This document shows, piece after piece, positions 27,101-60,515 of a stretch of 64,000 nucleotides of DNA (the first letter of the stretch is position 1; each line of letters begins with the position of its first letter). Source of the stretch: Yuukianura sp. NJ FZ-2021 (lineage: Eukaryota); assembly GCA_046563655.1 (NCBI GenBank), contig CM102290.1, positions 6,448,001-6,512,000 of the forward strand, given 5' to 3'. The notes under the pieces are model-generated. The model was not told the origin of the DNA, did not search any database, and saw only the letters and a program-made list of their open reading frames with translations. A program made the position numbers and the translations under genes.

Positions 27101-28361
27101 CCTTGACGTTCCCGCCATTCCCTTTAACGCACTTGCTGTGGATTACCTTGGCCCATTTCCCATCACAGCGAGGAGAAATACCTATATCCTAACCATAGTT
27201 GACCTCCATACCCGTTACGTTGAAGCTTGGCCCGTTCCCTCAGCAGATTCTGCTCAAGCGATCAAAGTCCTTACCAAACATGTCTTGTATCGTCATGGGA
27301 TTTCCAATATGATTTTGTCAGACCGTGGTACGGTTCTCCAGTCCGAAGAGTTTGAGGATTTCCTTGCCCTCCATTCCATTGATCACCGTTGTACGACTGC
27401 CTATAACCCCAAGTCCAACGGTGTCTGTGAGAGACATAACGGAACGGTAAAATCTGTCATCGCCAAATTCGTAAGTGAAAATCATAAAGATTGGGATCTC
27501 CACCTTCCCAAAGCAGTTTTCTCCGTCAATTGTTCAGTTCATCGGGTAACTAATTTCTCCCCATATTTTCTTATCTATGGTCGGGAGCCGGTTTTGCCGG
27601 TAGATAAGTTATTTCCCCTTCCCCAAGACTATTTGACCCCTAATGATTCTTTCGACAGATTATTCATCGCCAACAACGTAGCCCATGAGTTGTCTCGTGA
27701 GCAACAGCTCTTACGAGTAAAAGCTCAAATGCAGATCAGATTCCCCACCTACGTTGCTGGTATGAAAGTTCTACTCCGGAACTTTCAGAGGAAAAAAGGT
27801 CACGTTGGAAAATTCACCAAGAAATGGATTGGCCCTTACAAGGTCGTTGACGTCCTTGCTAACGGAACTGTTCGTGTAACTTCGGTCCCACCTCGAAAGC
27901 CTCACGAGACAGTCGTTAACGTTCAACGACTTAAACCTTACCACCAGCGTCTTTACGATGTTTCCAATTTTGACAGTAGTTCCCGTGAGTCGTCTGACGA
28001 TGATTCTGAACCCCCTCAGTCGTTACAGGCTCCAGAAATTACCCCCGATCCAATTCCCCCTGAAATTCCGAACTTACCAATTGAAATTCCCGAAATTAGC
28101 CCTTTTATGCTTCCCGAGTTGACCCCAAATTTTGACCCCCAAAACGTTGTCGAAAATGCTCCCCCTGAAAGCCCCGCCCCAGAAATCCCAGTTCCACCAG
28201 TTTTACCCGCACAGGATTCCCTGCTCCCTGTTGCGAGCGAAAACCCCGTAATTTGCGCCCCTGCCAGCGTAAATCCCGCGATTTCTGCTCAACCAATGCG
28301 CGCGGCGCGTACAAAAGCTCTTTCATTAATTTCCCGCCTTACCAAAACTAAAAAGCGCTGA
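24111..28361 (+). pseudogene. pol: E1 pol polyprotein (aspartic protease, reverse transcriptase, RNase H, integrase), broken by frameshifts and a stop
   Basis: Protease CDTGAS; RT RFCVDFRKVN, YPLPRIDD, MPFGLTNA and YLDD; RNase H CDASG and TDHHSL; integrase HHCC interrupted by TAA at 27022, then DYLGP, SDRG and SNGVCER; GPY motif. Spread over ORFs starting at 24111, 25106, 25945 and 27138. Confidence 0.95.
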
Positions 28362-28410
28362 CTGAGTGTTTTATTTAATACTCATACTGTGTTTTTTTCT
28401 GATTTTCAGG

Positions 28411-38045: not shown

Positions 38046-38681
38046 CTAATTGTTGTTGTTGTTGTGGACGGCAGCAACGACGTTCACCCGGGGATTGGGG
38101 ATGTAGTGGGGATTCGGTGGGGCTCCAGGAGGTGGAAGAAGACGAGGTGGTCGCTGCACCAAACAATCTGCTGCTAAATGGCCTTGCGCCCGACAAGTGT
38201 AGCAAATCCGACGTCGTTCAGCTTGTCGGTTCCTTTGTTGACCTCGACCTTGGTTCCCGCGTCCTCTTGCATTCCCACGTCGAGCGAGTCCGCCTCCTCT
38301 CTCCCGCACTATGATGACGAGTTCTCGCCCATTCCGAAATTCACGCCATCGCGGCATCCCACGCACTGGTGGCGGCCGAACTCGCATCAATGCCACTTGG
38401 CGCTGACCTCCAGCGTGACCTCGTCGATTTCTGACGGCTGGAGCAGGTACTGCTACTACTGGAGCTGCTACTGCTACTACTGGAGCTGCTACTGCTACTA
38501 CTGGAGCTGGTACTGCTACTACTGGAGCTGCTACTGCTACTACTGCAGGCACTACTGGAGGCACATTGTCAACATTTCCTTCGTCCTCCTCATCCGTCAA
38601 CAGAATTTCAGGAATTCCTTCCGCAGGCTGGTCAACGGCCATCGGCTCATCCTCTCCGAGCAATTCCCTCTCTCGATCCAT
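38046..38681 (-). CDS. E2 extra ORF3: acidic N-terminus, (VAVAAPV)n repeat, Arg/Gly-rich region and CCHC zinc knuckle
   Basis: ATG at 38681 follows the acceptor-like tttcagG. 21-bp tandem repeats at ~38440-38545. Knuckle CYTCRAQGHLAADC. Stop lies ~40 bp before the 3' LTR. Confidence 0.7.
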   Translation of the reverse strand: MDRERELLGEDEPMAVDQPAEGIPEILLTDEEDEGNVDNVPPVVPAVVAVAAPVVAVPAPVVAVAAPVVAVAAPVVAVPAPAVRNRRGHAGGQRQVALMRVRPPPVRGMPRWREFRNGRELVIIVRERGGGLARRGNARGRGNQGRGQQRNRQAERRRICYTCRAQGHLAADCLVQRPPRLLPPPGAPPNPHYIPNPRVNVVAAVHNNNNN

Positions 38682-38918
38682 GTTCCCTGAAACATTCCAC
38701 AAAGTTAGCAAAATGGCAAACACAAAGTTAAATGAAACAATGATCTTAGACACAAAGTCTAAACAAACAACCTTTGAAAATTCTTTTCAAAACTCAAAAA
38801 TGAAAACTAATTTTTCAGAAACACTAAGTTTTAATAAAAATTTCCACTAAGGAAGTTTCTAATTATTAAAAATTCACTAAGAATTTAGCAAAGTCAGCCA
38901 ACTTACCGACCGTTGGAC

Positions 38919-41900
38919 TCACGCAGTATCCGAACAGTAACGTTTCGGTTTCCTAATCGTCCTTGCTGACCTTCTCAGTTGTACTGGAGATTTCTTGGCT
39001 TCCTTCTTCTTGTCCTTCTTGACCACTACTGACGGAGCTGGCTGCTGGACATGGACCATTTTACCAATGTCCCCTTCGTCAGTGGCAGAATCTGAGTCAA
39101 CGTGGACACTAAGTCTAACGGGACTTTTCATTGATTCTGAGGAATTAACATTCCTCTTCCTTGCAGACTGAGTCTGATTCGGAATTTCTAATTCCGATAG
39201 CGACGAACTAGATGAACTAATCTTTCTAGTGCGCTTCTTTTTCTTAATCTTTGAAGAAACAAATTCTTCATCAGAACTCGAATTGAATTCACTACGAAAG
39301 TGAAACAAATCCCTAACATGCACAATAATCGGCTTCCTACTACTACCAATCAATTTGATTTGGTAATTAACTGCCGATGTTTTCTTAGTCACCACATAGG
39401 GACCTTTGGTTTGTGCAAGTAAACATTGGGACAAGCCTTTCTTACGTACTGGCACTGAGCGCAGTACCTTATCGCCAATGTTAAAACCAACATTTTCCTT
39501 ATTCCTGTCAAAACGAACTTTTGACTTTTCATGAACTCTCCTAGAGTTCAAGGCAGCGCTCTGACTTGGCATTAAGCATACGACCCTGAGGATGGAAAGG
39601 AGACGTGAACTTGACCTTGAACTTCAGCTCCTCTTTTGCCTGTTTCACTAAGTCGGCAATGAACTGACGACCTTGGTCACAAACAAATTCTTTAGGCAAC
39701 GAATGCCTAAGAATTACCTTATCTTTTATATTAGCTACAACGCACTCAGCGGTAGCGTGTGTGACTGCTACGGACTCAACGTAGCGGGAGAAGTGATCAA
39801 TAAATATTAGCGCATATTTATTCTCCCTGTCCTTGGACTTCACAAATGGGCCAATGAAGTCAATGCCCACTCTCTCGAAAGGGGTCGTGACCTCGTCAAA
39901 GTCTTGCATAAGACCTTGCTCACGCCCTCTGCGCACTCTATGTATCTGACAGACTTTGCATCCTAGAACAAATCTACGCACGTCACGATACATTCCCTTC
40001 CAGAAAAAGCGGGATTTCACACAGCTCCACGTTCTCGTCACGCCAAAATGTCCACTTAGGTCACCTGCGTGTACCGTCTCGAGAACTCGCTTTCTCAATT
40101 CTTTAGGCACTACTAGCCTCCAAGAGCGTCCTTCAGGCTCTAAATTAGCGGAATACAAAATTCCGTCTTTTAATGTGTAATCCTCCATATGACTTATGGA
40201 CGGATTTTTCTTACCCGATCCAGAGGCGCACTCAGCTTGCTCAATGGATTCAATGACCTTCCTTATCCATGGGTCTTGACTTTGACTCTCTTTCCAGTCC
40301 ACCCCGTCTAGCACTAAGCATTCTGAGGAATCCATTGCCTCTGGTGGATCTACTGGAAACCTTGACAAGGGGTCAACGTCATTAGCGACCTTTCCAGCCC
40401 TATGGACGATGGTCATGTCCTGTGCCTGTAACACAAAGGACCATCTCGCAAGACGACCATTGGGGTCCTTCACAGAGAAGAGCCACTTCAACGCACTATG
40501 GTCTGTCACTACGGTAAAATGAGTACCGTACACATAGGGTCTGAACTTCTGTACAGCGTACACGACAGCCAAGCATTCCAACTCGCTAGAGGTGTACCTC
40601 TTTTCAATGTCCGTCATTGCTCTGCTGGCATAGGCAATGACCCGTGGTTGACCTTCCTGGATTTGCACTAAGCTTGCTCCAAGGCCAAAGCCACTTCCAT
40701 CACAATGGATCTCAAATGGAATACCCTCCATAGGAAATGCCAATATTGGACTAGTCACTAAGGCTAGTTTTAACTTTTCGAAGGCTTCATTTTGCTCAGC
40801 TCCCCACACAAAGTCCTGATCTTTTCTTAACAGAAAATTCAGTGGAGCAGCAATTTTTCCAAAACCTTTTATGAATCTCCGGTAGTACCCACACATGTTC
40901 ACAAAAGAACGAATGTGTGTTGGAGTTTTAGGTACAGGAAACTTAGTCACCGCAGACACTTTATCCTGATCTACCTCGACTCCCTCACTGGAAATGACAT
41001 GTCCAAGATACAAAATCTTTGCCAATCCAAATTTACACTTAGAAATTTTCAACGTTAAGTTAGCGTCACGAAAACGACTTAACACTGTTCTGAGGCGCAA
41101 CTGATGTTCCTCAAACGTCTTTCCCCACACAATTACGTCATCCAAATACACTAAGGTGCTCTCCCACTTAAGGTTCGACAGCACAACGTCCATTAGGTAT
41201 TGGAAACTAGAAGGACTGTTACAGAGTCCCATGGGCAGACGTCTAAATTGGTACAGACCATCCGGCGTCACAAAGGCCGTTTTCTCTTGGTCTTTTTCAT
41301 CCACTTCGATTTGGTAAAACCCAGATACCAAATCGAGTACAGTGAAGTACTTAGCGCCACCAAGGCGGTCTAGAGCGTCTTCCATTCTCGGTAACGGATA
41401 CGCATTCTTCTTCGTAATTGCGTTGATCTTCCGGAAGTCAATGCACAACCTTGATGAGCCATCCTTCTTTGGGACTAGCACAACAGGCGCGGCCCATGGG
41501 GAAATTGACTCTTCCACAATTCCCGCATCGCACAAAGCTTGGACCTTTTCCTTGATCTTCCTGCGCTCAACAAATGATGCGCGGTATGGGTGAGATCTAA
41601 TTGGAGGATGATCTCCCGTCTCTATCTTATGACGAAACAAATTCGTCTTCCCCACTTTTGATTCGTCAGTCACAAAGACATCAGAAAATTCTTTCACTAA
41701 TTTGAGGACTTCCGTCTTCTCACTTAGAGTAAGATCCTCCCCCAAATTAATTTTAAAGTCATCCTGACTTTGCTTAGGCTGGACCGTTCCCATAGTACCA
41801 TCATGATCACTTAGAAGCATGACGCTGGCTCCCTTAGCACAAGGCGAACCAAATGCAATTGTACTATTTCTGGGCAGTCTCACCTTCCCCTTATTCAGAT

Positions 41901-42813
41901 TAGTAATCCAAATATCCGTCTTTCCATCTCTAATCACAGCGTACACATAGGGCTGGATTACGTTATGTTCAAACTGTAAGCTTCTGTTCGGTGACAGGAT
42001 CACTGAACCAGAAACTATGTCAGGGCAATGAACTGTTACCCTGTGTGCTTCCCTCGGTGGAAGTACAACAGTTTGCAACAAACAAAAGTTCCACATAGGA
42101 CTAGGCTCCTCCTCTTCTTGTGACACATAGTCTTGAGGGTTACCTACAGTCTTGTCACTTAGACTTGACCTTGAACTTTGCTTCGGACTGTGTGACCTGA
42201 ATGTCCAATCCGTTCCAAGCAAAATTCTGTCTCGAAAACCTGGCATAACATGGAAACCCCACAAAGTAAGTTTACCATCGTATGTCACCATTAACTCCAC
42301 AAAGTTAGTTAATGTTGTTTGTCCCAAGGCCGTTGTCACTAAGAGCGGCGGGACTGTGTACTCCTTGTGTACAGCCTCCTTCACCTCCAGCAGAAACTCT
42401 GGACTAACAACACTAATGTTAGACCCCTCATCCACCCTCACAGAATAGGCTTTGCTACAGATAACAAATTCTGTAGTAATCCGGGGCCCTATTCGTTTAT
42501 GGCGGAAGGTTGCTGGCAGTGAATGACCTTCAACACAAGTCATCTCATTAACATCCACAGAGGATGTTGACTTCACCTTGGCTTGACCTACAAGCTTAGA
42601 GGTTGATACCAGGCACGAGGCTGGTAATGACCTCCCTTGACTTTGCTTAGAACACGTAGTTCTAATTAACTTAATTTGCTTATCTTTCTTCTCCACTGCA
42701 CTGTCAAGCACAAAGCAAGACACAGGAGAAGAACTTACTGCACTATTTTGCGTAAGAAACTTATTCTTACCAACTGCGGAGTTTTTCAGGTGACCCCGTT
42801 TCACCTTTCTCAA
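38919..42813 (-). pseudogene. pol: E2 pol (protease, RT, RNase H, integrase with an internal deletion)
   Basis: VDEGS protease-like motif; RLCIDFRKIN, LPMGLCNSP and YLDD; CDGSG and TDHSAL; HHCC, DFIGP and CDQG. After PFHPQ the sequence jumps, with a frameshift, to the GPY-containing C-terminus, so the catalytic Glu region is missing. Confidence 0.92.
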
Positions 42814-43649
42814 TCGTTTTTTGACTTAACGATTTCCTCTGCCGTCTCCGCGGCAACACCATAGACAGAAGACGACGGCTTCGGCTTCCTGTCTGGACAA
42901 TCCCTTATGAAATGATCATCCTTACGACAACCATAACACAACTTTTTAGCCGGCTTCTTAGCCGCGTCACTCGAATCACTAAGGGTCGATGACCTTGAGG
43001 AACTCGTTTCCTCCTTCGGCTTACCCACAGAGGGATTTTTGCTGACCCACTTAGGTTTGTCAGGCTTATCCGGCTTGTCCATTTTTCGCAACTTTTGCAA
43101 AAATTCAGTCGGATTTTTCGGTTCTGCGCAGTACATAATGTTGCGCAGCGTGTCGGGAAGCCCTTTGGTCAACTTTTCGACCTGCTTCTTGTCCGACATG
43201 TTCGGATCCAGCATCATAAAGATACTCAACTTTTTGCTGACGTACTCCCCAGCGGAGCTACAGTCAACAAACTTAATGGCACTGGCAGCCTTTTTCGCTT
43301 CCTTACGAACCGACTCAGGTTCGTAAAACGATTTTAATTGTTGTTTCAACAATTCCCACTTTTGATCCTTATTAGCGTCACTAAGATCGCTAATGTACTT
43401 GATCTGCGCAAATTTCCACCAATCCTGTGCTTCACCTTCCAGAAGCAAATGGAAATTTAGTAACAATAACCTGGAGTCAACTTGCTTTGTCTCCAGCGCA
43501 GCATCACATCTCACACAGAAAAGGTCTACATTCGATTTCCCATCGAATTTAGGAATTGACCTAATGACACTTTTCACATCGCTGGACATGGCAGTCGCAG
43601 CGTTAGTGCCTTTGCTTGTACTCGGATCAGTTGCCATCACAAAGTACAA
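42810..43649 (-). CDS. gag: E2 gag (capsid-like domain plus CCHC knuckle)
   Basis: IPKFDG, LLLEGEAQDWW and CYGCRKDDHFIRDC. Ends at the slippery heptamer A AAA AAC (42816-42822), overlapping the -1 pol frame. Confidence 0.9.
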   Translation of the reverse strand: MYFVMATDPSTSKGTNAATAMSSDVKSVIRSIPKFDGKSNVDLFCVRCDAALETKQVDSRLLLLNFHLLLEGEAQDWWKFAQIKYISDLSDANKDQKWELLKQQLKSFYEPESVRKEAKKAASAIKFVDCSSAGEYVSKKLSIFMMLDPNMSDKKQVEKLTKGLPDTLRNIMYCAEPKNPTEFLQKLRKMDKPDKPDKPKWVSKNPSVGKPKEETSSSRSSTLSDSSDAAKKPAKKLCYGCRKDDHFIRDCPDRKPKPSSSVYGVAAETAEEIVKSKND

Positions 43650-43761
43650 CTTCCCTTTTGATACTCAACTGAATCTTAGCACAATAACCTTACGTGAGTT
43701 CCTGAACGTATGCCCCCAATCACGAAGTTTGAAGACTAGTTCCGTTGCTCGTTCCACCAAA

Positions 43762-44409: not shown

Positions 44410-46351
44410 TACTTCGAGTTTCGTAAACAGGTTGCGGTATAATGGCCAGTGGTTATTCTTTGGCCAATATGTGACAAATCTGTACGAACATTTTTTCGTT
44501 TCACCGGTTTTTTTCACTTCAAGGCAAATTATTTCTGAAATGTTGAGCTTTCGTGACACCTTTGTTCCTTCGGCATCAAACCTGCAAAAGAATATAAGAC
44601 AGTTAAGGAATAGTTTGAGGTTAGTCAGTCGTCATTTTAATAAGTGCTCTTACCGCTTGATACATAAAATCAAGATCGAGGGTGCGCTTTCAATTACTTT
44701 TGTCAAAATGGCTCGTTTCGACGTGCAGTGCTGACAATTGTACTCAATTGTGTCAAAGGAGAAGTACTTATCCAGCATTTGTGCAACCTAACACACACAC
44801 ACACACAAAAAAGGAGTGCTTGATTTTTCTTTCACTTTTTGTTAAATGGTTCGAAGTTATGTGAACAAAATGAATACGTCAGGAACAGTCCTGTTGGAGG
44901 ATGTTGGTAACTCACGTAATAAGCCCAGCTCAGATGAGACGGAGGTGTAGCGGTCGCTGCACTTTGTGAACATTTGGTTGTGGCGACACTTTGTGGAAAA
45001 TAGGTTACGTAGGTCAAGAAGGGTAGGTGACTTGAGGTTTAGAATAAGAGTAAAAGAAAGAGAGATAATAATAGGTAATTTAACATTTGGTGCTTCTAAT
45101 GCAAAGGTTGAGTGTCATACCTTTACTGGTGAAGTTGAAGGTCGAAATCCACAGATTTCAACTTCAAAAACGTCAAAGAGGTGGAGCAGAAATTCATGGG
45201 CATCTTGTTCCTGATTTTTTCCATATATTGACTTTGCCCCTCCTCTTGCTTTCACAAATTCCTCCTTCGAAATAACAAAGAACCTCGTTAGGTAAGGAAT
45301 ACTGTAACAATGAATATTTATTTTCTTGAGTTACGTGGAATTTTGTTTGTGACAAAGAATACGTTGTACTGCGGCCAGTTTTGAGATCATTTGTGATCTT
45401 ATCGCTCAAACTGTTGCTGACTGGTCCCATGCCTGTCGCAGACTTCAGGAAAGTTACGAACGCCGTACAAGATGTGAGGCACTGAACTGTTGCATTCAAG
45501 TAACAAGTATTCCCGATGTTTTTCAGTCCAACGGGAACTTCCTCATGTACAAGAGATGACCTGCGACGTGGTTGTAAACTATATATATATATATAAAGAA
45601 CAAACGAACCAACCATACAATTAGTAAAAAGGAAGGAAACGAATAAAAGAAACAGTAAGGAAATAAGCATACGGAGGAAGACGCGTAGGAGAAGGGGAAG
45701 TAAAATGGACGTGGAACCCTTGAAATTAATTTCATTGAAAGTGAGAAATGTACAATTGTACATGTACAATTGAAATAATGCTTTGTTACCAGAAGATGGG
45801 GTTTGGACCCGCTGTTGCTTGAGTGGAGGACTAAATTGAGTAGGCGAAAGTGTCAATGCTGTACTCTTTCTTTTGTGGGTAACAAAACCACCACAAATCT
45901 TCTTCCTTCCAAATCATTTCCCTTCTGTCTTTCACGGTTTGCAGCTCAGTTAAGTATGTTGGAGCAAGGAGGGCGTGCATGAATGCCTCTCGAGCATGTC
46001 CATGGTCACTTTCCATGTGGTCAACTAAAGGCCCCATTCTAACTCTCCCTGGTTTTGAACATAGTGGGCAATGATAAAGGCCTTTTCCGCTTAAACACCT
46101 TTTCCGCTTCTGTAAAAAGAATTTAACGTGAATTATGTTGTGTAACTTCTTAGTAGGAAATGGTTATATTTTTTCACATATAAACCTGGGAAAATTGACT
46201 GGATGAACGACGGCGTGTCTCCGTGCTGGGTTTGCATATGACTAATGATTGTTTTCAAGTCTCCTTGTCCTTCCGTACATGGTAATGTTGAGTTGGTTAC
46301 ATTGTGTGGACATTTGAATGGAGGTCCAGAGACAAGATGAGCCAAAACCAC
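44410..46351 (-). pseudogene. Second multi-exon USP (peptidase C19) gene with two upstream C2H2-like zinc fingers, truncated at the 3' end
   Basis: Cys box GLKNIGNTCYLNATVQCL (~45480-45530), QEQDAHEFL (~45187-45213), YNCQHC...APSILILCIKR|FD across an intron, and His box SHIGQRITTGHYTATC (~44428-44475, frameshifted). Fingers are FKCPH...HMQTQH and YHCPLC...HMESDH. Confidence 0.8.
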
Positions 46352-48874: not shown

Positions 48875-50558
48875 TGTAATTAAAGTACACTTGGGTGGAC
48901 CGCATTCCAAATGTGGGGAGTTGGCTATACGGAGACCTCGACAAACCAAAATCTCTTCAATATTTCACTATGCTGTTCGTGTTCATGCTAGTTTTGAAAT
49001 AATTCCTTACATGGTGATAAGGGGGGGGGGCAGTTGTTGAAGGTCGCCAGGAGGGGTGGACCAATTCTACTTCAATGGACACATTTCTCCACCATCAGGG
49101 TCACTCCACAAACGTTTCTGACAGACACGGGAAATTTAAGCAGACAGTTCAATTTTAAAAAAGCATCAAGGTCCCGGGATGCTTTTAATTTTGCAACTTT
49201 GCAGTTTTTCCACTGTTCACTTTGGTTCGCTTTTCAAACGAACCTTGCCGAACATTGAACGAAGAGAATGGCGTCTGTTACACAAGGTAGCAAACACTCT
49301 TCAATTAGTATTTTTAATTATTTGTTAACTTAACTAATTACTTGGTAGACCGCAGTGTCAGGCTCTAGGAGGACTCGCGGCAGGGACTTGTGCTACTGGC
49401 TTTGGGACTTTGTTGCCAGTGTAAGTTCTTCCTCAAACTTCATAAAACGTTTGAAACTAATCAAGTTTTCCCACACTTTTGTGAAAAATTAATAAAAGTT
49501 GATAAGTTTTTAGGAGTTGCGGTTCAATTGTGAACCAGAATCAAACGTTCATCCGAAATCCGGATTTCCCGAACAAGTATATCTTCCACCAAGCGGAAGT
49601 GACATTTGCCAAATCCGAATTTGGCGACAAATCAACACTTGCCAACTGCGCGTGCTAAGCAACAGAGAAGCAAAACACTGGAACTGTTTTGTTTTCGGTT
49701 TTTTCTGATGCCTTTTTTATTTTCATTGATTTTGGAACTTTCAGCTTTCGCTACCATTTTCGCTTTGGTTTTCATAACTTCGTTCATTTTGAAAAAGTCT
49801 TTTGGTGTTTTGTTTGAATTTTGAACAGTTTAGAGAAAAAAATGGAGCTGGTAGAAGAATTTACTGTAAGTTTGAACTAAGTTACAGTCAAATTACAGAA
49901 GCTTTCACCAAAAATTTAGTTGTGACCTTGACATAACATAACTTTGACCGTAGACCTATAATTTTTCACAAGCTCACATTCTGTATTACTGTCGTGAAGG
50001 ATACTGGCGATCCATACAAAATGTTGCTGCAGAAGGAATTGAGAAATTTCCGCACGAAATTTCGTTTCGTTTTATGCACGGATTGAGCTTTCTCTTCCAA
50101 CGCCAGTTTCCCCCAAGCCATCCGAATCCTAACTCCTCCGGTGGTAAGATTTCTCAAAAATTTTGAAAACAACCTTTCAAAATTTGAAAAATTAAACAGA
50201 AATTCTGAATTTGGCAGAGTCAACATACAGTGTATCTCGGTTCCATCCTGGCAGCCATTGATGCTCACCGTCAATTTGTCAATGTTGACGACGAAGAAGT
50301 GGAAACGCTGGAATCCAAATTTCTGATGTGTTGGGCAGTATCTGTACTATGCCGGATGTTTCTTGGTACTTTCTGGACGGTTCAAGAAATTCAAAGAGTA
50401 TTTGAACCGAGCCGTTGAGCATTCTGATGGCGACCATTTGGACTCGATGTCGCTTCTCGGCTGGGTTGAAATGCAAAGTTGCACCTCCAGGTCAAGGTCC
50501 AACTCAAATCCAAAGTTCCCGGCCAAAACGCCTTCAGACCACTTCGACAAAGAGTCAC

Positions 50559-50932
50559 TGTTGGGCGTCGCTGCGTAGGCTTAGTAGCCATAAGATTATG
50601 TCTTATTGAGATTTCGTAGAGATGCGGCGAGAGAGTCGCGGGAGTTTTGGGATGTGGCGAGGTAGAGAGAGAGATGTATTTTGTGTATAGAGTTTAGTAG
50701 TTAGTTCTGATTTGGTGTTAGAGTGAGTTGGAGATCATTTTGTCATGATCATTTTATTCAGTGTTTATATTCAGTATTTATCGATACAATAAATACATCT
50801 TCATATATTTATGTATCGACGTGTTTAGCAGTGGTGATTTTCTGGAGGTTATTTGGGTCTGTGAGCCTGTAGGCTCGGAGAGTAGTCTGGTGGTGGTGTT
50901 TCATCAGTTGTTTAGCGTCGCAGGGCGTTACA
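50559..50932 (+). repeat. E3 5' LTR (374 bp)
   Basis: Direct repeat of 58128-58503, with TG...CA ends and AATAAA at ~50788. Confidence 0.97.
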
Positions 50933-51139
50933 CATGGCGACCGTTTGCGTCCAGATCCAGTGACCTGGAAGTCACCAAAGGTCAAAAAAGATAAAAGTAA
51001 GAAATATTGTGAAAAATTTTGCATTAAAAAAGTGTACTGTGCATAAAATTAATGAATGAGAGTCGCTACCAGCGGCTTTCGCCCACTTATTCATTCTGGG
51101 AGTCACTAACAGTGGCCTCCGTTGTGTCAAAGTTCATCC

Positions 51140-52660
51140 ATGAGTGAAAAGAAAGTTCCTAGTGAACTTTCCAAGTTAAAAATCGACAAATCAGTCGCAT
51201 TCGGCGTGGAGGTAGAGGGACTATCTCCTGACGCGGAAGGACCGTTCTTGAGAAGCAAAACTTCTCCGAGTGTATCTCCAACTCCAACATCCAGTGCTAT
51301 AGTGTCAGTTCCTGCGGGTGCATCGACAATGGCAACATACAGTAAAGATGACGTGGACAGGATAGTTGCTGCTGCGGTAGCAAAAGCCATGAAAGGCGTG
51401 GAAGACAAAATAGTGTCCAGAGTGTCCACGGGAGTCGCTACTGCGGCCTCCACTGTGAGTGAAAGTGAAAGTCAGACAGAGGCGCTGATTGCTGCCTTAA
51501 AGAACGTGAAGTTTACCTCGTTGTCATCAAAGTTACCAGTTCCAAAATTCGACACAAGGAAGATGTCGGCGGCAGGATACCTTGCTGATGTAGAACGCTA
51601 CTACACAGCACAAGGACATTCAGAGCAACAGTTTTTGTACCTAGTGAAAACAGTGTTGCCAAGTGAGTCTCAGCCATGGTTTGAGCATATTTTAAATACA
51701 GTGACAACGTGGGACGAATTTAAAGATGCATTTATTGATCGTTACGACAATTGGATGGATGTGGCAGAGCGGACTAGACTCTTGCACACCCGAAGACAAC
51801 AATTACATGAACCAACTGAACATTTCATCTACGATATGGTGCGCAGTGCTAAATTAGTGTACCCACATGAAACAACAGCTGAGGCTGTTATGAGGGCGAA
51901 ACTGGCGCTATACCCTAGACTTCGTACAGCTCTAGGTACTGGCAGTTTTCCTACAGTTGAGTCATTGTTTGAAGCGTGTCGTGTTGCTCACGCTAACTTA
52001 AGTGCCGAGGATCGAATTAATCGTGAAAAATACCCAAAGCTACCACCAATTGTGAAAGTGGAATCAAAAAATTCAGAAAATGAAAAAAGTGGAAGTGATG
52101 GTGCGAGTTCCAGTGCTAATCACAAGAATAATGGAAATAACGGAAATTACTACAGAGGAAGAGGAAATTACAGTGGTGGTTACCGTGGCTCAAATTATCG
52201 TGGCAGAGGTGGCTACCATACTCAAAACCAGGAGCAAAGCCCGGTTCAGACAGCAAATGGGAGTCAGTTCACTGGCTTCCCCCCAAATCATGGTGATGTT
52301 CAAAATCAAGGTCAGAGTCAAGGTCAGAATCAGAGACCTTCTGCGGCAGACAGTTCTGTTCAAAATCAGAGTCAGTCAGTGCAGCGTGGTAGAGGTGGTT
52401 ATCGCGGAAATCGTGGTGGTAGTTCCAGTGGTCGTGGTAATGGTCGTGGGAATGGTAATTCGCAGCCAGTGAATCCAGAGGATGTCCAGAGCTACAAGTG
52501 TAGTGGTTACGGTCATCGACAGTTTCAGTGTCCTACGAACATGGGTGCGGCCTTAGGATCATTCAGTGAGGCGGCTAAAAAAGCTGTGGCTCAAAGCGAA
52601 AATGTGAACCAGGCTCAAGGGCCTTCTACTTCTACAAATATGAAAGAAAAGTTAAACTAA
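51140..52660 (+). CDS. gag: E3 gag (capsid-like domain, RGG-rich region, degenerate knuckle SYKCSGYGHRQFQC)
   Basis: PVPKFD, PWF...TTWDEFKDAFIDRY and RRQQLHEP. Stop follows the G TTA AAC heptamer at 52651, and the -1 frame is open into pol. Confidence 0.9.
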   Translation: MSEKKVPSELSKLKIDKSVAFGVEVEGLSPDAEGPFLRSKTSPSVSPTPTSSAIVSVPAGASTMATYSKDDVDRIVAAAVAKAMKGVEDKIVSRVSTGVATAASTVSESESQTEALIAALKNVKFTSLSSKLPVPKFDTRKMSAAGYLADVERYYTAQGHSEQQFLYLVKTVLPSESQPWFEHILNTVTTWDEFKDAFIDRYDNWMDVAERTRLLHTRRQQLHEPTEHFIYDMVRSAKLVYPHETTAEAVMRAKLALYPRLRTALGTGSFPTVESLFEACRVAHANLSAEDRINREKYPKLPPIVKVESKNSENEKSGSDGASSSANHKNNGNNGNYYRGRGNYSGGYRGSNYRGRGGYHTQNQEQSPVQTANGSQFTGFPPNHGDVQNQGQSQGQNQRPSAADSSVQNQSQSVQRGRGGYRGNRGGSSSGRGNGRGNGNSQPVNPEDVQSYKCSGYGHRQFQCPTNMGAALGSFSEAAKKAVAQSENVNQAQGPSTSTNMKEKLN

Positions 52661-55600
52661 AGGAGGGGAATGACGAGTCGTCCATCATTCACCCAACATT
52701 AATTCAAATCTCGGACGAAACTATACCATTTGTGAGTGTGACCGCGTACCAGTCAAAGTTCTTGGCTATTTTTGATACGGGATGTTCACAATCACTAATT
52801 GAAAGAAGTTTGTGTAAAAATTTAAATTCAGTTGTAGTGTCTTTAGAAAATAAGTCTACAACGACAATGAACAATCAGGAGCTACATTTAAGTGGTTTCA
52901 CCTTTGTGTACATAAAAATTGGAGAGAGAACGATTAGGTTTAGGTTCTTCGTGGCAGAATCTCTTCCTGTTCCGTGTGTTTTGGGTTCTGACTACATTGC
53001 TCAGAACGACATTGTGCTTCGATTAAAGTCAAAGCAGTTTTGGTTTGGTGCGAATGAGAGTCATAAATTTACTTTGGCTTTCGCCCATGGTACGACTGGT
53101 TCAGCGTACTTTGCAGTTGCTTTACCAAAAAGCAAAAACAGTGAAAGTGAAAGTGATATTCAAGAAAAAGTGCAAAAAGTGTTAAAACAGTTCCCGACTG
53201 TGGTTAGGGACGATGGGAAATTAGGAAGAACGGATTGGACTCATCATATTATTGAAGATGAAGGATACCCGCCAGCGAGGAATCCTTACAAAAAGTCACC
53301 AGCGATTCAGAAGGTGATAAATGATCAAATTGAACAGTTACTCAAGGAAGGGATAATTCGAGATTCAAGATCACCGTATGCAGCACCAGTTGTGTTAGTG
53401 CCAAAGAAAGATGGCAGCCAAAGACTCTGTGTGGATTATACTTGTTTAAATCAGCAAACGAAGACGAATGCAACTCCAATGGAAAGTGCACATTCCATTT
53501 TACATTCGATTCCTTCAAATCATTGGTATTCAGTGCTTGATTTGGACAGAGGCTACTGGCAAGTGATGTTGCATCCGGATAGTGTTGAAAAGTCAGCATT
53601 TGTGACACAGGATGGACATTATGAGTTTTTAGTGATGCCATTTGTTCTAAAAATAGTCCTAAAACGTGCCAACAGTTAATCAGAAGAGTGATTCGTGGGT
53701 TTTCTAATTTTGCGAAGGGTTATATGGATGACATCATCATTTTTAGTAAAACAGTGGATGAGCATATGGTGCATCTGTCTAAAGTGTTAACTAGGCTTAA
53801 GTTGGCAGGCCTAACCCTTAGTCGCAAAAAACTTCAGTTGTGTCAACGTGAAATTGATGTTTTAGGTCATAAGTTGTCAGGGTTTAAAAAAGTGTCCCAA
53901 AAAAGTGCAAGCGATTGTGGATTTTCCTACGCCTAAAAATGTGAAAGAAGTTCAACGATTTCATGGAATGGCTCAGTGGTACGCCAGTTTCATAGAACAT
54001 TTTGCACAAAAGGCAGAGCCTATGTACAGACTTTTAAGAAAAACTCAACCGTGGCAGTGGGGACCAGAACAACAGAAGTCATTTGAAGCAATTAAAGAAG
54101 CAATGTGCAACGATGTCATGATGTGGACTATGATCATCCAATTTTGTTAAAGTGTGATGCGTCTAAGTTAGGGTTGGGAGCAGCCTTGACGCAAGTGTTT
54201 AATGGTGTGGAGAGACCAGTTATGTTCATAAGCAAGACTCTACGAAATTCAGAAATTCGGTATCATATTTACGAGAAAGAGTTGTTTGCCATCATTTGGG
54301 CTTATCAAAAATTCAGGGAGTACATAGAAGGTCAAGAATTTACAATAATCACAGACAACAAAGCCCTGTCGTTTCTACAAAAGATGAAAGAGAGAAAACA
54401 AAAGTTACAGTTATGGGATGTGGAGATTAAGTCGTGGGGAGTGCCAATTAAACATCGAGCAGGGAAGGATAACGTGGAGTCGGACGCGCTTTCACGGGCT
54501 CCAGTTCCAGTGCAAGAAGATGATTTGGATTTTGACGACGATTCCCCAGAGTACATGTATTCGCCGATGGCCACGGCATTACTGTCATTCGACACTCCAA
54601 CATTCAAGCAGATGAAAGAAGAACAGGAGACAGATGAAGAATTGAAAAAGGTTATTCGTGCAGTGAAAAGTGGAAAAAGTGAGCAGCAGTACGTCCTGAA
54701 GAATGGGCTACTGAAAAAGAGAGTCAAAGACTTTGGCTTTCGCACCACTGTGGGAGTCTGCGGATATCCCGAAGAAGAGAGAGATGCAGAAACGGGGCCC
54801 CAAGCTTCTGACATTTCTCTAGAGAACGTTGTCCTAGCCTCTAATGGCGCAGCTCGCAGCGTATCTCAAACTCAACAAAGTGAGTTACTAGTGACAGTGG
54901 TTCCAAGGGTCTTAATCCCTAAAATTTTGCAAAATCTACACGATGTTCCAGAAGCGGCTCATCTAGGGATCAAAGCAACAAAAGTGAAAATTAAGAAGAG
55001 ATTTTTCTGGCATAATATGAACAAGGACATTAGTGAATATGTGCGTTCATGTCCAGTTTGTCAAGTAGTGAAAAGTGTTAATCATAAACCATTCGGGTTA
55101 CTTCAGGGAGCTAAGCCAGCTACCCAAGTTTTTGAAAAAATTTATGTGGACTTCTTAGGTCCGTTACCCCGCAGTTCAAATGGAAATGAATATTTGTTCG
55201 TTGTTGAAGATGACCTCTCCAAGTGGGTTGAACTTTTTCCAATTCGAAAAGCAACAGCGAATAAAGTAGTGAAAGTGCTAGTGGATGAGATATTCTGTAG
55301 ATATGGAACAGTGAAAACTATAGTGTCAGACAATGGAAGTCAGTTCATCTCTAAAACAATGGCTAAAATGACCAAAGACTGGAAAATCAATCATGTGTGC
55401 GTCAGTCCATATCACGCTCAGGCCAACTCAGTTGAAAGAGTTAATCGTGATTTAAAGCCTATGTTACAGGCCTATGTGGGTGCTAACCATAGAAGTTGGG
55501 ATATACACCTTCAAAAGTTCGCTTTAGCCCTGAGAACTACAGTGCATAGTTCAACTAAAGTGACACCTTCATTATTGAATTTAGGACGTGAGATACCATT

Positions 55601-56132
55601 ACCTATAGACAGAAGTTTACAGAGTGATCAAAGTGTAATTAATTCAGAAACAGTGGATTTAGCAAGCATTCCTAGGGAGTTAAGTGACATTGTTAGTTTT
55701 GTGCGTCAAAACATTCAAAAAGCTCATGATGCGAGTAAAAGGTACTACGACCAGCGTCACATTGAACCTACGTTTCAAGTTGGTGATTTTGTGTTAGCTA
55801 AGAGTCATGTTCAGTCTGATAAAGCCAAAGGAATTATGCAAAAATTGTCACATCGGTTCGTTGGTCCATTTCAAATTAGTGAAATTTTGACACCAGTGAC
55901 ATTCAAATTGGTTAGGTTGCCAGAAAGAACGTATTTTGGTAAGCGTCACGCGTCTGAGCTTAAGCCATATACAGTTCGCAAGTCGCAGTTCAAAGTACCG
56001 TTGGTGTCTGTCGTGTCAGAGGAATCGCCAGACCCAGACACTCTACCGGTGAGGCGAACAACAAGAAACATACAACGTGTTAACTACCGGACTTTAGCTG
56101 GTTACAGATCTTACAATTCAAGTACTAATTAG
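52651..56132 (+). pseudogene. pol: E3 pol (protease, RT, RNase H, integrase) with about three frameshifts in the RT/RH region
   Basis: FDTGCS; RLCVDY, MPF and YMDD; CDASK and TDNKAL; HHCC, DFLGP, SDNGSQF and NSVERVN; GPF motif. Confidence 0.95.
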
Positions 56133-56209
56133 ACGTTAATCATCAGTGTCTACTTTACCGTGAAGTGTCAATTGGGAGTCATAAGTGTTTGGCTTCCGTC
56201 ATTCTCAAC

Positions 56210-58084
56210 ATGCCTGGATCGATTCTGAAAGTAAGTAGTGCTAAGGAGAGGGTCCTAAGCTTTCTGCAGAAAAGGAATTTGTGTCTACGGAAGTACGGTA
56301 ATGCTAAAGAACGACCACAGGAATCTGACCCAGTTTATCTTCGTCGTGCAAGACTTCGTAATTCATGGTCAGTGTTTCCTCATAGTGTTCATCCATTTGT
56401 GGAAGATGTTGATTCTTGGAAGTTAGAGGAGTTCCTGGATACTAAACATACAGAAATCAAAGGAAAGTGGTATGAAGACCGTCGTAAGGATTTTAAGGTG
56501 ATTATAGTGGATAGTGAGCGTGCATTTCGACGTATGCTGAAGCATCTTCGTGAGTGCTCCGTCATTGCTGTGGATCTTGAGATGAGCTTCGACAAGGGAT
56601 ATATTGATAGATATATCTCACTTCTACAGTTATCGGTTCGTGGATGTGATTATCTTGTTGATACTTTCCAGTTGGTGCATCAGTGTGATCAACTTAAAGA
56701 AATTTTTCATGACAGCGAGACTTTAAAAGTTTTTCATGGAAGTGACAATGATCTACTCGCTCTACAGCTTCAATTTCAAGTTTTCATGGTTGGAATGATT
56801 GACGTTCAAGTGGTACATAAAGAGTTTTGTGGTGGTCAACCAATTGGATTTGACAAATTAGTTCATTTTTATCTCGGTTCGGAAGTGTCAGTTCCGAAAG
56901 AGTGCCAATTAAGTGACTTTCGTATTCGGCCCCTTACAAAAATGCATTCGGATATGCTAGAGTACGCTCGTAGCGATACTCATCTTCTTTTGCGAGTCTG
57001 CAGAGTGCTTCAAGTTAAGTACCCATTTGTACAGTTTAGGGATAAGTGGAAAAGTGCAGTGGACAAGTGCAATGTGATGTGTAAAAAGATGTATAAAATC
57101 AAACATCACCCTACGTCAAGTGAACTTGTTCAGCGGTTTGCTCAGGGTGGTGTCAATTCGGCTGTACTTTTGAAAATTTTTGAGTGGAGATCACAAGTAG
57201 CTCGTGCTTGTGATCGTCAACCAAGTGATGTGATTATCGACGAGTTATGTGTAAAAATAGCTACAAAGTTGCCAGTTGATTCATCAGAATTGACTAAGAT
57301 CCTTGGCAAAGTGGATCTTAGCAGTGATCATTTGTATAAGTTGTTAAAAATTACAGCTGAAAGTCAGACTGTAAATGTGGGCCCTATGGGAGTCGATTCA
57401 TCGGCCTCCGCTAGTTCAAGTGCTAATTTAGTGCCAGTAGACTACGATGACTGGGATGTACCAATGGTCATTCCTACGGTGCAGAGCCAGGTTCAAAATG
57501 ACGTTGTGCCTACTGCAAGTTCAAGTGTAAATATTAGTGACAGTGTGCCAGTGGCGGAAGACGACAAGTTATCTGTCATCTCAGATACTTCGATTTTGTC
57601 AGATGTGTCGGCTGAGCCTATGGAAGAGGACAAACCAGTGGAAGATGCAGAGGCAGATAGTGACATGACGGATGTGGAATGTGACATTGTAGAAGAGACT
57701 ATTGATGACGGAGATGCTGATGACGTATTGGAAGTCTTTGTTCCACAAGCGGATTTGGACCAGTTGGAGGAAGTACCGGAAGTTGTTGCAGTGCCTGGGA
57801 GGATAGTTGCAGAGGTAGACATTCCACAGCACAGACATGTACCAAATCCAGACCGTTGTGGGCATTGCGGTTCTTCTCGTCACTCGTGGGAGCAGTGTTT
57901 CTACCGTCGGCGTGGATTTTCTCGGGCTGAGGCCATCGCCAAGTACAAGTGGAGAAGGAAGAAAGACAATGCAAGGATCAACATTGCTCGTCGTGGGGAC
58001 TACGCTGAGCGCCAAGTTCGTCGACGGGAGAGGAGAGAGCAGAGAGACGAGGATGGAGCAGCCGCCGCCCGAGTTCGTCGCTGA
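56210..58084 (+). CDS. E3 ORF3: Rrp6/EXOSC10-like DEDDy 3'-5' exoribonuclease with HRDC domain, acidic tract, CCHC knuckle and Arg-rich tail
   Basis: ExoI IAVDLEM; LLQLS...DYLVDT; ExoII KVFHGSDND; QLSDFRIRPL; ExoIII MLEYARSDTHLLL; HRDC IFEWRSQVARACDRQPSDVI...KIATKLP; knuckle CGHCGSSRHSWEQC. Uninterrupted, intronless and inside the LTRs. Confidence 0.93.
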   Translation: MPGSILKVSSAKERVLSFLQKRNLCLRKYGNAKERPQESDPVYLRRARLRNSWSVFPHSVHPFVEDVDSWKLEEFLDTKHTEIKGKWYEDRRKDFKVIIVDSERAFRRMLKHLRECSVIAVDLEMSFDKGYIDRYISLLQLSVRGCDYLVDTFQLVHQCDQLKEIFHDSETLKVFHGSDNDLLALQLQFQVFMVGMIDVQVVHKEFCGGQPIGFDKLVHFYLGSEVSVPKECQLSDFRIRPLTKMHSDMLEYARSDTHLLLRVCRVLQVKYPFVQFRDKWKSAVDKCNVMCKKMYKIKHHPTSSELVQRFAQGGVNSAVLLKIFEWRSQVARACDRQPSDVIIDELCVKIATKLPVDSSELTKILGKVDLSSDHLYKLLKITAESQTVNVGPMGVDSSASASSSANLVPVDYDDWDVPMVIPTVQSQVQNDVVPTASSSVNISDSVPVAEDDKLSVISDTSILSDVSAEPMEEDKPVEDAEADSDMTDVECDIVEETIDDGDADDVLEVFVPQADLDQLEEVPEVVAVPGRIVAEVDIPQHRHVPNPDRCGHCGSSRHSWEQCFYRRRGFSRAEAIAKYKWRRKKDNARINIARRGDYAERQVRRRERREQRDEDGAAAARVRR

Positions 58085-58127
58085 TGGATGTCGGCCAGGG
58101 ACGACACCCATCATCTGGAGGGGAATG

Positions 58128-58503
58128 TGTTGGGCGTCGCTGCGTAGGCTTAGTAGCCATAAGATTATGTCTTATTGAGATTTCGTAGAGATGCGGCGAG
58201 AGAGTCGCGGGAGTTTTGGGATGTGGCGAGGTAGAGAGAGAGAGATGTATTTTGTGTATAGAGTTTAGTAGTTAGTTCTGATTTGGTGTTAGAGTGAGTT
58301 GGAGATCATTTTGTCATGATCATTTTATTCAGTGTTCATATTCAGTATTTATCGATACAATAAATACATGTTCATATATTTATGTATCGACGTGTTTAGC
58401 AGTGGTGATTTTCTGGAGGTTATTTGGGTCTGTGAGCCTGTAGGCTCGGAGAGTAGTCTGGTGGTGGTGTTTCATCAGTTGTTTAGCGTCGCAGGGCGTT
58501 ACA
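58128..58503 (+). repeat. E3 3' LTR (376 bp)
   Basis: Direct repeat of 50559-50932, preceded by the PPT. Confidence 0.97.
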
Positions 58504-60515
58504 TCACAGAATTTCACAATTTTGAGAATGTCAAATTTTTCAAAAACCAAAATTTTTGAAATTTAGAAACAAGAAGCATCTTGATGCTCGTTTGGGCGTG
58601 GCCAGATTCTACGAAGAGTGACTTTTCGAAAGCAGTCGAAGAACTAAACGCTATTTTGGCTTTCTTTCCTAACTGGATTCCATCTTTAGTCGAAAAAATG
58701 AAAATTGCGGTCTCCCTTGAAGAGTGGGATCAAGCATTGGAGAATGCTACAAGGTATAGAGTTCATTGACCTTTGATCTCTTCGTTGACCTTGACCTTTG
58801 ACCTCGTCTTTGAAATTTGAACTTGACCTGTCTTTCTAGAATTCTAGCTCTGTATTCAAACAATCTAGAAGTATTTCGACTTAAAATCCTCTACTCGTTT
58901 TATCGTGAAGGTGATATCAAAGAAACAACAAAAAATCTTGACCTCTTTTTCATCTTGTGCAAAAAATCAGAACCGAAAAACGCTCCATATTTTAACGAAT
59001 ACGGTCGCCTGTTTTCACAATTGGTAATTTTGAAAACATTTTCGTAATTTCAAAAATTTTTGCAAGAGAGGTTTTTTTTTCTAATTTTTTTTTGTTTCCA
59101 GTACCAGGGAAGTTTCAGTCCAGAAATCCTGGAGAAGTGCCTGGAATTTGCCCAGTTTGCATCCGAGTTGTGTCCAGACAACGGAACGTATGTTTCAGAC
59201 ATTGGTCGAATTTATCTACTGTTGAAGCAGCCAAAAGAAGCTCATGCGCAGTTCATCCGTGCTTCCAGCCTCAACAATGCTTCTCTTCCAGCCTTGTATG
59301 GTCTCATCATATGTCAGTTGGAAGAGATGAAGTTGACCTGGCAGGTCAACAACTCCAGTTTCTGCGTAACCTCTCTGGGGACACAGAGGCTACTGCGGAA
59401 TTGTTCTACTTGAATGCTGTCCTGGCCATAAAAGAAAATCGTGCTCCAGAAATCATTCTTGACAATTTGAATTCCAGCGTCCAAAGACATATTCGAGCAA
59501 TTCAAAAATTCCCGCTCAACATCCAGTTTCTCAAGGTCATCAATCCAGAATTTGTCATCAAAATTGTACGAGAGTATTTGGTGTTTGCACCACAAAAGGT
59601 GAGTTTGAAATCTCAAGGTCATTGACACCGGATCACTGAAATTTGAAATCTGAATGCTGATTGGTTGTTTTTCAGCCAATCACAAAAGGAATGCAGCCTC
59701 CGGTGGCAGTCGTTCAAGCATCACTGGTGCTTGGGATGCTGACGAAAATTTGCCCAGCACATCAAGATGCTTTTGATCATCCATGCACAAATCAAGTATC
59801 TGAGCAGAGAATTCGCTGCAGCTACACTGATTTTGAACAACCTTCTCAAAATTAGTATGATGAGAACGTTTTTCAAAAAAAAAATTCGAAGTTTTGTTCA
59901 AATTTTTTCTGTAAATTTTTTATGATTCATTATAGACAGCACTGGAACGGATTTTCATCTTCTATTGACCCAAGTCCACATTTCACAAAACGCTTGGGAC
60001 CAAGCTGCCCTTACACTGGAAGCAGCACTGAGCAACAATTTTGCTGTAAGTAAATTTCCAAATACAAAACACTTCAAAATTTTGAAATTTTTTTTGAAAC
60101 TAAGAAAATTTGGGCGAATTTTAGGTCCGACAGAATTTAAAGTACCATTTTCTGTTGGCCAAAGTTCAAGTTTCCCAGAAAGAAATCAAGGAAGCCAAGT
60201 TGACGTTGGAAACGGCTTTAAAAATCTTTGAGGAAATTGAAGCTCGACGCGTACTGCGTCGACGCAGTGCAGAATCAATGCAACCGACCACCGTTAACTT
60301 CAACATCTCCAACCAGTTTTCAGTTTACATCGAACTTATAGCAATTCTACAAACTCTTGGATTGGTTGACGAAGCAAAACGGCGAATGGACGAGGCAACT
60401 CTAAAATTTCAAGTAAAATTTATAAAACACAAATTTTTCAAATCTTTTCATTTTGTTTCAAAATTTTGAAATTTTTTGAAATTTTGAAGGGTACACATTT
60501 GGAAGGCCGTCTTAG

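Follow-up and report, generated by a model that had tools for sequence, protein, structure and literature searches.

The window analysed here is a stretch of 64,000 nucleotides from Yuukianura sp. NJ FZ-2021 (contig CM102290.1 of assembly GCA_046563655.1, positions 6,448,001 to 6,512,000 of the forward strand), and positions are counted from its first letter unless a contig is named. It contains a Ty3/Gypsy retrotransposon of 7,945 bp (50559-58503), flanked by a pair of long terminal repeats (LTRs), in which a third open reading frame (ORF), designated ORF3, occupies the env slot between the integrase and the 3' LTR. Judged from its sequence and its predicted fold, the product of ORF3 is a DEDD-Y nuclease core of the Rrp6/EXOSC10 type. 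Rrp6/EXOSC10 is the 3'-5' exoribonuclease of the nuclear exosome.

A first-pass annotation had placed this ORF within an LTR pair, in env position and together with a target-site duplication, a primer-binding site and a polypurine tract, all of which is borne out by reading of the sequence and by blastn (Table 1). The frame of ORF3 is open from 56129 to 58084, with 651 codons from stop to stop, and its first ATG at 56210 leaves 624 amino acids (aa) and a stop codon. At the stop-codon frequency of the window (0.049), a frame this long would stay open by chance with a probability of about 5e-15. The ATG lies 27 codons past an upstream stop, and a stop is found 2-27 codons 5' of the ORF3 start both in the window and in five related loci on metagenome contigs (L001 to L005, described below). 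The frame relation of ORF3 to pol is not fixed; because of this, and of its own ATG past an upstream stop, ORF3 is probably translated from a separate, possibly spliced, message.

Domain organization and predicted fold of ORF3

From its HP motif onward, ORF3 is homologous to the linker preceding the exonuclease (EXO) domain of Rrp6, the alignment made by hhalign starting at column 59 of the ORF3 family profile. The motifs VDLE, HGSDND and YARSD are all present in the protein, and in the alignment with yeast Rrp6 the catalytic Asp, Glu, Asp, Tyr and Asp of the yeast enzyme are matched by D122, E124, D181, Y252 and D256. In the AlphaFold model the helices of the single HRDC domain span residues 317-388 and are followed by disorder; the hhalign alignment reaches family column 381. 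The acidic linker (residues 393-546) has an isoelectric point (pI) of 4.05, and the part behind it, residues 547-624, is basic, with 25 Lys and Arg residues and a pI of 11.3. The PMC2NT domain (PF08066) was not found by a Pfam scan of ORF3. Neither a membrane-like segment nor a signal peptide was seen in the protein, whose highest hydropathy over 19 residues (1.39) falls within a strand of the EXO domain.

The best sequence matches to ORF3 in the PDB are yeast Rrp6 (2e-24), trypanosome Rrp6 (7e-22) and human EXOSC10 (3e-21), whereas Escherichia coli RNase D is a far weaker match (2e-9). These alignments stop at about residue 363-383, and ORF3 is 23-29% identical to canonical Rrp6. The AlphaFold model, built on a 20-row alignment of the family, is mostly confident over residues 11-390, with block means of the predicted local distance difference test (pLDDT) of 88-98 and a dip to about 60-65 over residues 71-90; residues 550-624 are helical with moderate confidence. 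When the model was searched with Foldseek, catalytic cores of Rrp6 came first (2.8e-21 to 1e-18), followed more weakly by RNase D (3.4e-15), Nibbler (8e-10) and EXD1 (2e-7). A viral structure library yielded no Rrp6-like protein and weak DEDDy matches only, the best at 1.6e-9. The model contains no glycoprotein or coiled-coil fold.

In a profile-profile comparison, columns 59-381 of the family aligned with columns 198-523 of a canonical EXOSC10 profile built from 17 proteins (E 5e-62) and nowhere else. Since the alignment is confined to this region, what ORF3 shares with canonical Rrp6 is the single HRDC domain and, before it, the EXO domain together with the linker wrapped around it. In this alignment ORF3 has nothing that corresponds to the PMC2NT end of canonical Rrp6 or to any of its C-terminal part. 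PMC2NT is the docking site for Rrp47/Mtr4, and the C-terminal region of Rrp6 binds the exosome core. The first-pass annotation had reported the DEDD-Y residues and an HRDC domain without PMC2NT, which agrees with the Pfam scan and the PDB alignments, and had described an acidic tract, a CCHC knuckle and a basic tail fused to the nuclease, which composition, motif match and model confirm. Its nuclease assignment likewise holds under profile and structure searches, with DNA_pol_A_exo1 and HRDC matched and Rrp6 cores ranked first by Foldseek.

Table 1. Features of the ORF3-bearing element and of ORF3, in window positions.
Feature	Positions	Strand	Evidence
Target-site duplication TCAC, 5' copy	50555..50558	.	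sequence read; equals 58504-58507
5' LTR, 374 bp, TG..CA ends	50559..50932	+	repeat pair; blastn 98.9% identity to 58128-58503
Primer-binding site TGGCGACC...	50935..50952	+	2 nt past 5' LTR; sequence read
gag ORF	51140..52660	+	ORF; tblastn with gag of L005, 37% identity
pol (protease, reverse transcriptase, RNase H, integrase with H2C2, rve, Tf2-type SH3)	52579..56132	+	Pfam, ORFs; tblastn with intact pol of L005, 38-41% identity
ORF3, 624 aa, uninterrupted, Rrp6-like nuclease with predicted RNA-binding tail	56210..58084	+	
ORF3 residues 1-95, basic N-terminal region with family motifs RPQ, RN, HP, W	56210..56494	+	alignment; pLDDT 88-97 over residues 11-70
DEDD-Y 3'-5' exonuclease domain, residues 98-269	56501..57016	+	Pfam PF01612 (DNA_pol_A_exo1), E 5.9e-26
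Single HRDC domain, Pfam residues 318-366	57161..57373	+	PF00570, E 1.6e-5, 25.2 bits against a cut-off of 23.8
Acidic linker, residues 393-546, predicted disordered	57386..57847	+	pLDDT <50; 39 Asp+Glu against 4 Lys+Arg
CCHC zinc knuckle CGHCGSSRHSWEQC, residues 550-563	57857..57898	+	regular-expression match
Arg/Lys-rich helical tail	57899..58081	+	predicted helices 572-623, pLDDT ~75-88
Polypurine tract GGAGGGGAA	58117..58125	+	sequence read; just 5' of 3' LTR
3' LTR, 376 bp, TG..CA ends	58128..58503	+	repeat pair; blastn
Target-site duplication TCAC, 3' copy	58504..58507	.	sequence read

The ORF3 protein family

A total of 3,437 matches were obtained when ORF3 was scanned with HMMER against 1.84 billion protein representatives at E values up to 1e-3, eleven of them at 1e-30 or better. 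The closest relative, P0006, was found at 7.8e-70 with 37% identity. A word-index protein search had returned three distant matches, and the family emerged from the full HMMER scan. The best matches are collinear with ORF3 from the first residues and have the whole architecture in common: a basic N-terminus with the motifs RPQ, RN, HP and W, EXO, HRDC, an acidic linker, a CCHC knuckle and a basic tail. PMC2NT was present in none of the 27 family members scanned, as against 25 of 43 other proteins, and the Pfam scores of the EXO domain are 53-113 bits in the family and 134-186 bits in the PMC2NT-bearing group.

A phylogenetic tree was constructed from 91 rows and 270 columns by a quick search in IQ-TREE with the LG+C20 model, and was rooted on ten RNase D-like ORFs from metagenome contigs, nine with a GC content of 0.62-0.73 and one of 0.45. 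The window ORF3 falls in a clade of 30 rows, apart from canonical Rrp6, with a support of 98 in the Shimodaira-Hasegawa-like approximate likelihood ratio test (SH-aLRT). A second clade of 51 rows (support 85) is composed of the canonical proteins and 15 short gene models. The unity of the 30-row family thus appears well supported by the aligned sequences. Members are 25-40% identical within the family and to canonical Rrp6. The complete set of five DEDD-Y residues is found in 27 of them, and D181 in all 30. The knuckle occurs at the same position in 16 members. In a subclade composed of P0018, P0019, P0023, P0024, P0106 and P0121 (support 99) it was lost and the basic tail with an RRxFNxRRN-like motif was kept.

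When 30 family proteins were looked up, eight clusters named an organism, and all eight are from springtails: seven are of Orchesella dallaii, from at least three subclades, and one is of Allacma fusca. For some of the O. dallaii proteins, near-identical paralogues are encoded on other contigs. Springtails of at least three species carry the lineage. Family members carry the public labels "ribonuclease D", "3'-5' exonuclease domain-containing protein" and "HRDC domain-containing protein", and users of such records could take these retrotransposon ORFs for exosome or RNase D genes of the host.

The first-pass annotation had proposed that the element captured a host nuclease. An Rrp6-type core does reside in the element, but the capture is not a recent one. 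Since the family is separate, long-branched and so diverged both within itself and from canonical Rrp6, the acquisition appears from the sequences to be old and lineage-wide, not a one-off event.

Genomic context of related loci

A profile scan of metagenome contigs, based on a five-row alignment, revealed six loci of the family, five of which have at least 1.6 kb of upstream DNA. At L001, an integrase ORF with H2C2, rve and a Tf2-type SH3 ends three bases before the frame of ORF3 opens. At L002 the element is complete: gag, an intact pol of 1,214 aa and ORF3 are accompanied by LTR pieces that are 99% alike. L005 has gag, an intact pol of 1,219 aa and ORF3. Two springtail gene models show the same arrangement. 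The O. dallaii model P0014 starts with the C-terminus of an integrase and continues into the nuclease, and a "Pol polyprotein" model of Orchesella cincta, P0173, is 39% identical to the RNase H-integrase ORF of the window and ends in an exonuclease fragment. The nuclease is therefore placed directly after a Gypsy integrase on three metagenome contigs and in two springtail gene models. The pols of L005 (45%) and L002 (42%) are among the nearest relatives of the RNase H-integrase ORF of the window, and by these comparisons pol and ORF3 seem to travel together.

A short version of the gene, of 373-378 aa and without acidic linker, knuckle or tail, is found at L003 (9519-10637) and L004 (6059-7192), where it is 60-64% identical to ORF3 of L005. 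About 1 kb downstream of it, a conserved ORF of 376 aa is present on both contigs (L003 11600-12727, L004 8208-9338; 49% identical between them), with a hydrophobic start and end and several Cys residues. This ORF had no match in Pfam and no usable match in the Atlas. Loci of the L003/L004 type may have arisen as an offshoot by domestication, or they may belong to a different kind of element.

Copies of the element and selection on ORF3

Further copies were sought among Logan contigs from three runs of one sample and from one run of another organism in another study, which were aligned to window positions 49500-59500 at 85% identity or more. Between 95 and 519 contigs per run fit this region, with all identity classes from 85 to 100%. 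The six listed contigs that overlap ORF3 have 59, 34, 55, 38, 155 and 27 differences to the window and no gap in any of them; one spans the junction from pol into ORF3, and one, of 1,279 bp, is from the second organism. A contig over non-coding flank, taken for contrast, shows 23 gap letters along with its 50 differences. No RNA run figured among the runs listed with matching contigs, a result that bears on expression in neither direction.

The ORF3 proteins of L003, L004 and L005 share 60-64% of their residues; between the genes, the proportion of nonsynonymous differences (pN) is 0.20-0.25 and that of synonymous differences (pS) 0.81-0.90. The first-pass annotation had pointed to an ORF3 that is uninterrupted while pol has frameshifts. 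This is indeed observed, but it carries little weight. ORF3 makes up 26% of the 7.2-kb interior and would escape three breaks with a chance of about 0.4; the intact ORF3 beside a broken pol is for this reason not in itself a signal of selection.

The window copy and its surroundings

The LTRs of the window copy differ at two substitutions and by one length difference of 2 nt, and with LTRs this nearly identical the insertion is recent. Pfam domains follow the gag ORF in the order protease, reverse transcriptase, RNase H and integrase, collinear with the intact pol of L005. No Pfam family was matched by the gag ORF itself. The pol of the window copy has three frame changes, all within 53625-54150, so this copy lacks the intact pol that L002 and L005 have. 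Contigs of other copies show length differences within the same stretch, and the breaks are on that account either private to the window copy or errors of the assembly. The sole knuckle of gag (52489-52530, about residues 461-474) reads SxxCx4Hx4C, its first Cys missing, and this alteration is a second sign, beside the frame changes in pol, of a non-functional copy.

The element is inserted within a TTC21/IFT139-like host gene, parts of which are seen at 50327-50578 and 58996-59625 (Pfam ARM_TT21_2nd, 1.4e-18). In a single contig from the same sample, 50549 is joined to 58550, with no more than 38 letters on the short side. The contig resembles an empty site, on a second haplotype that has diverged, and the insertion may be heterozygous.

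No second copy of ORF3 was found within the window. Two further Gypsy elements, of other lineages, are located at 24039-29622 (+) and 38046-43664 (-), and each has an extra ORF after the integrase. That of the former (28366-29622) is rich in Ser and Pro, of low complexity and without a Pfam match. That of the latter (38046-38786) begins with acidic residues and also contains Val/Ala/Pro repeats, a stretch rich in Arg and a CCHC knuckle. A derivation of the ORF3 tail from an older ORF3 like the one at 38046-38786 was considered and rejected, as the BLASTP match has an E value of 1.7 and only the general make-up is alike. An ORF at 45194-45913 (-) contains the start of a ubiquitin C-terminal hydrolase (UCH) domain and is presumably a host exon.

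Comparison with known systems

Exonuclease ORFs behind pol have precedents in bdelloid rotifers. The LTR elements Juno and Vesta carry an ORF3 with a DEDDy exonuclease, shared with Athena/Terminon, whose role is given as unknown (Rodriguez, Kenefick and Arkhipova 2017, PMC5408684). A DnaQ-like exonuclease is also listed among the known accessory domains of LTR elements, in a 2019 opinion paper (PMC6338049). As described in the former, the ORF3s of Juno and Vesta resemble that of the window in being a third ORF after pol, in encoding a DnaQ/DEDDy 3'-5' exonuclease and in lacking a membrane-spanning or coiled-coil segment, and some of them have a Cys-His-Cys zinc motif. The same text presents them as RNase D-like, recognised only with the help of HHpred and not grouped with Rrp6, whereas ORF3 of the window matches Pfam directly. 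Their motif is stated to read DEED, while the third acidic residue of the window family is Asp in 30 of 30 members; their pol is stated to carry a dUTPase, while Pfam finds none in the pol pieces of the window. The HRDC domain, the Rrp6 linker and the springtails as named hosts also set the window family apart from the rotifer ORFs as published.

It had been suggested in the first-pass annotation that no described Gypsy lineage carries this cargo. At the level of the kind this is contradicted by the bdelloid DEDDy ORF3s (PMC5408684), and exonuclease ORF3s in LTR elements are already known as a kind; the Rrp6-type form with HRDC and knuckle was not found described. The literature searched, which did not cover Repbase and Dfam, yielded only the rotifer study and publications citing it, and contained no description of an ORF3 of the Rrp6 type bearing HRDC and tailed by a knuckle, nor of a springtail element with one.

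Compared with Rrp6/EXOSC10, ORF3 agrees in linker, DEDD-Y EXO domain and single HRDC domain. It differs in having an acidic linker, a knuckle and a basic tail in place of PMC2NT and of the C-terminal exosome-binding region, in belonging to a separate clade and in being encoded by a mobile element. Nucleases of the RNase D type from trypanosomes (PDB 7c42-7c4c) likewise join a DEDDy exonuclease to a CCHC knuckle. In the Atlas cluster of this type, composed mostly of Euglenozoa, PF01612 is present in 100% and zf-CCHC in 61% of the members. One of the structures contains U12 RNA, by the title of its PDB entry. The trypanosome nucleases, taken to be cellular genes, are a weaker fold match to ORF3 than Rrp6 (5e-10 against 3e-21), and the likeness would be one of design, not demonstrated kinship. 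We assume that the trypanosome nuclease of the RNase D type with CCHC fingers trims the oligo-U tails of guide RNAs. Nibbler and EXD1 belong to the same fold class and act at the 3' ends of small RNAs, but are far more distant than Rrp6, are host genes and lack HRDC and knuckle.

Among other mobile elements, the Dada DNA transposases also possess a DEDDy exonuclease, with all four acidic residues; Dada, however, is a DNA transposon, its domain is inserted in the transposase, and the proposed targets of that domain are the ends of cleaved DNA (Kojima and Jurka 2013, PMC3706591). The env of insect errantiviruses is a third ORF at the same position of a Ty3/Gypsy element, but it is a membrane fusion glycoprotein, whereas ORF3 has no membrane segment.

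Proposed role of ORF3

We consider it likely that the window copy represents an old Gypsy lineage with an Rrp6-type core under selection, and that this core acts as a free-standing exoribonuclease serving the element at RNA 3' ends. The third gene provides the Rrp6 linker, EXO and HRDC without PMC2NT and without the C-terminal region by which Rrp6 is held on the exosome. Where these docking parts are missing, ORF3 has the acidic linker predicted to be disordered, the CCHC knuckle and the basic helical tail. As the gene appears, from its conservation, to be kept by selection for catalysis, ORF3 would act as a 3'-5' exoribonuclease on its own, off the exosome, and its own knuckle and basic tail would bring the nuclease to RNA. 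In this way it may serve the element at the 3' ends of RNA.

Several substrates can be envisaged. Counter-defence, by which ORF3 would shorten or destroy the precursors or guides of host small RNAs, is tentatively placed at the head of the list and corresponds to the anti-silencing role suggested in the first-pass annotation; the accessory genes that mobile elements carry are usually directed at the host, and DEDD nucleases are known negative regulators of RNA silencing. The removal of destabilising or inhibitory 3' tails from element RNA, or the maturation of that RNA, is a possible role that we put next, because uridylation is reported to restrict LINE-1 (PMC6191937) and a trypanosome DEDDy/CCHC nuclease was crystallised with U12 RNA. 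Trimming of the ends of single-stranded complementary DNA (cDNA) is unlikely, and for a decoy in this ranking we see very little prospect.

Several observations weigh against the reading of an old, selected and free-standing nuclease. Long branches, the quick tree search and a support of only 85 for the canonical clade make any placement of the family with respect to canonical Rrp6 tentative. Of the 30 clade members, 14 lack the knuckle and three have lost catalytic residues. P0033 has lost four of the five DEDD-Y residues, and in P0106 the last Asp is changed to Glu. In P0007 (L002 6108-7757) the Glu of the ExoI motif is changed to Gly within the otherwise intact L002 element, which may be a private mutation or may mean that catalysis is not always needed. 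Synonymous sites among L003, L004 and L005 are saturated, so that only the direction of selection, purifying, can be stated from these sequences. L003 and L004, two of the five loci with enough upstream DNA, are exonuclease-only genes without gag or pol nearby, and hence the family is not strictly tied to Gypsy elements. The window copy, moreover, cannot be autonomous, as its pol is broken and its gag knuckle altered.

Other explanations differ mainly in whether the gene belongs to the element and whether its catalysis matters. That a processed host EXOSC10 mRNA was recently copied into a single Gypsy copy, without any role for the element, would agree with the best match being Rrp6, with an intronless ORF and with a single copy in the window. 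It is extremely improbable in view of the low identity to canonical Rrp6, the separate clade shared with 29 other proteins, the same gene after the integrase in L001, L002, L005, P0014 and P0173, and the existence of diverged copies both in the same sample and in another organism; a one-copy capture near-identical to EXOSC10, which the first-pass annotation had named as the contrary case, is contradicted by the recurrence of ORF3 in a 30-member clade at 23-29% identity to canonical Rrp6. It also seems highly unlikely that the springtail proteins are a domesticated family of host genes whose proximity to Gypsy sequences is annotation noise. The short conserved exonuclease-only genes of L003 and L004, without gag or pol and followed by a second conserved ORF, would fit such a family, but a pair of LTRs and a target duplication flank the window copy, the LTRs of L002 enclose gag, pol and ORF3, and O. 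dallaii has near-identical paralogues on different contigs. A cargo acquired long ago and now decaying without function would accord with the catalytic losses in three of 30 members, with an intactness of the window ORF3 that could be chance (p ~0.4) and with rotifer ORF3s that, according to PMC5408684, show no significant departure from neutrality within a genome. Such a neutral passenger has very little chance of being the answer, as the five catalytic residues are kept in 27 of 30 members despite 25-40% identity, pN is far below pS, all six of the listed diverged ORF3 contigs are free of indels, and domain order and tail are conserved across the clade.

Two further alternatives give ORF3 another task. 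As a decoy or dominant negative, it would soak up partners or substrates of the exosome and thereby blunt nuclear surveillance of the element. Both the retained core fold of Rrp6 in the predicted structure and the action of the nuclear exosome and Rrp6 in the silencing of repeats and transposons in Drosophila, as reported (PMC4577213; bioRxiv 10.64898/2025.12.16.694471), would suit this idea. It was offered in the first-pass annotation and fits poorly: PMC2NT is absent, homology to canonical Rrp6 ends at HRDC with no counterpart of the C-terminal exosome-binding region, so that both docking parts of Rrp6 are missing, and the DEDD-Y residues, conserved in 27 of 30 members, would be superfluous in a pure decoy. 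We regard it as improbable to a high degree. A substitute for env, which would help particles to exit or enter cells like ORF3 of errantiviruses, is suggested by the position in the env slot and was raised as a formal possibility for the rotifer ORF3s (PMC5408684). With no signal peptide or membrane-spanning stretch (maximum 19-residue hydropathy 1.39) and neither a glycoprotein nor a coiled-coil fold in the model, there is hardly any likelihood of it. A free-standing exoribonuclease of an old Gypsy lineage thus remains the reading that we favour.

Implications

Retrotransposons seldom have accessory genes, and such genes are informative about the dealings of an element with its host. For LTR elements, the one exonuclease cargo that we found described is that of bdelloid rotifers, which is barely recognisable by sequence. 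The springtail family is clearly Rrp6-like, keeps its catalytic residues, has clean domain boundaries and resides in arthropods that can be kept in the laboratory. Because of the Rrp6-like sequence, the clean boundaries and the keepable hosts, the role of exonuclease cargo in retroelements becomes directly testable.

A bolder proposal, which we hold to be rather doubtful, is that a Gypsy lineage, possibly distributed across springtails, has long retained a catalytically intact, exosome-independent Rrp6 core with a zinc-knuckle RNA tether of its own, that this core serves as counter-defence, and that it was acquired independently of the rotifer ORFs. If true, the element would turn a nuclease of the silencing type against its host, with small-RNA guides or precursors being shortened or destroyed or repressive 3' tails being stripped from the element RNA, and the capture of nucleases would be a recurrent strategy of retroelements.

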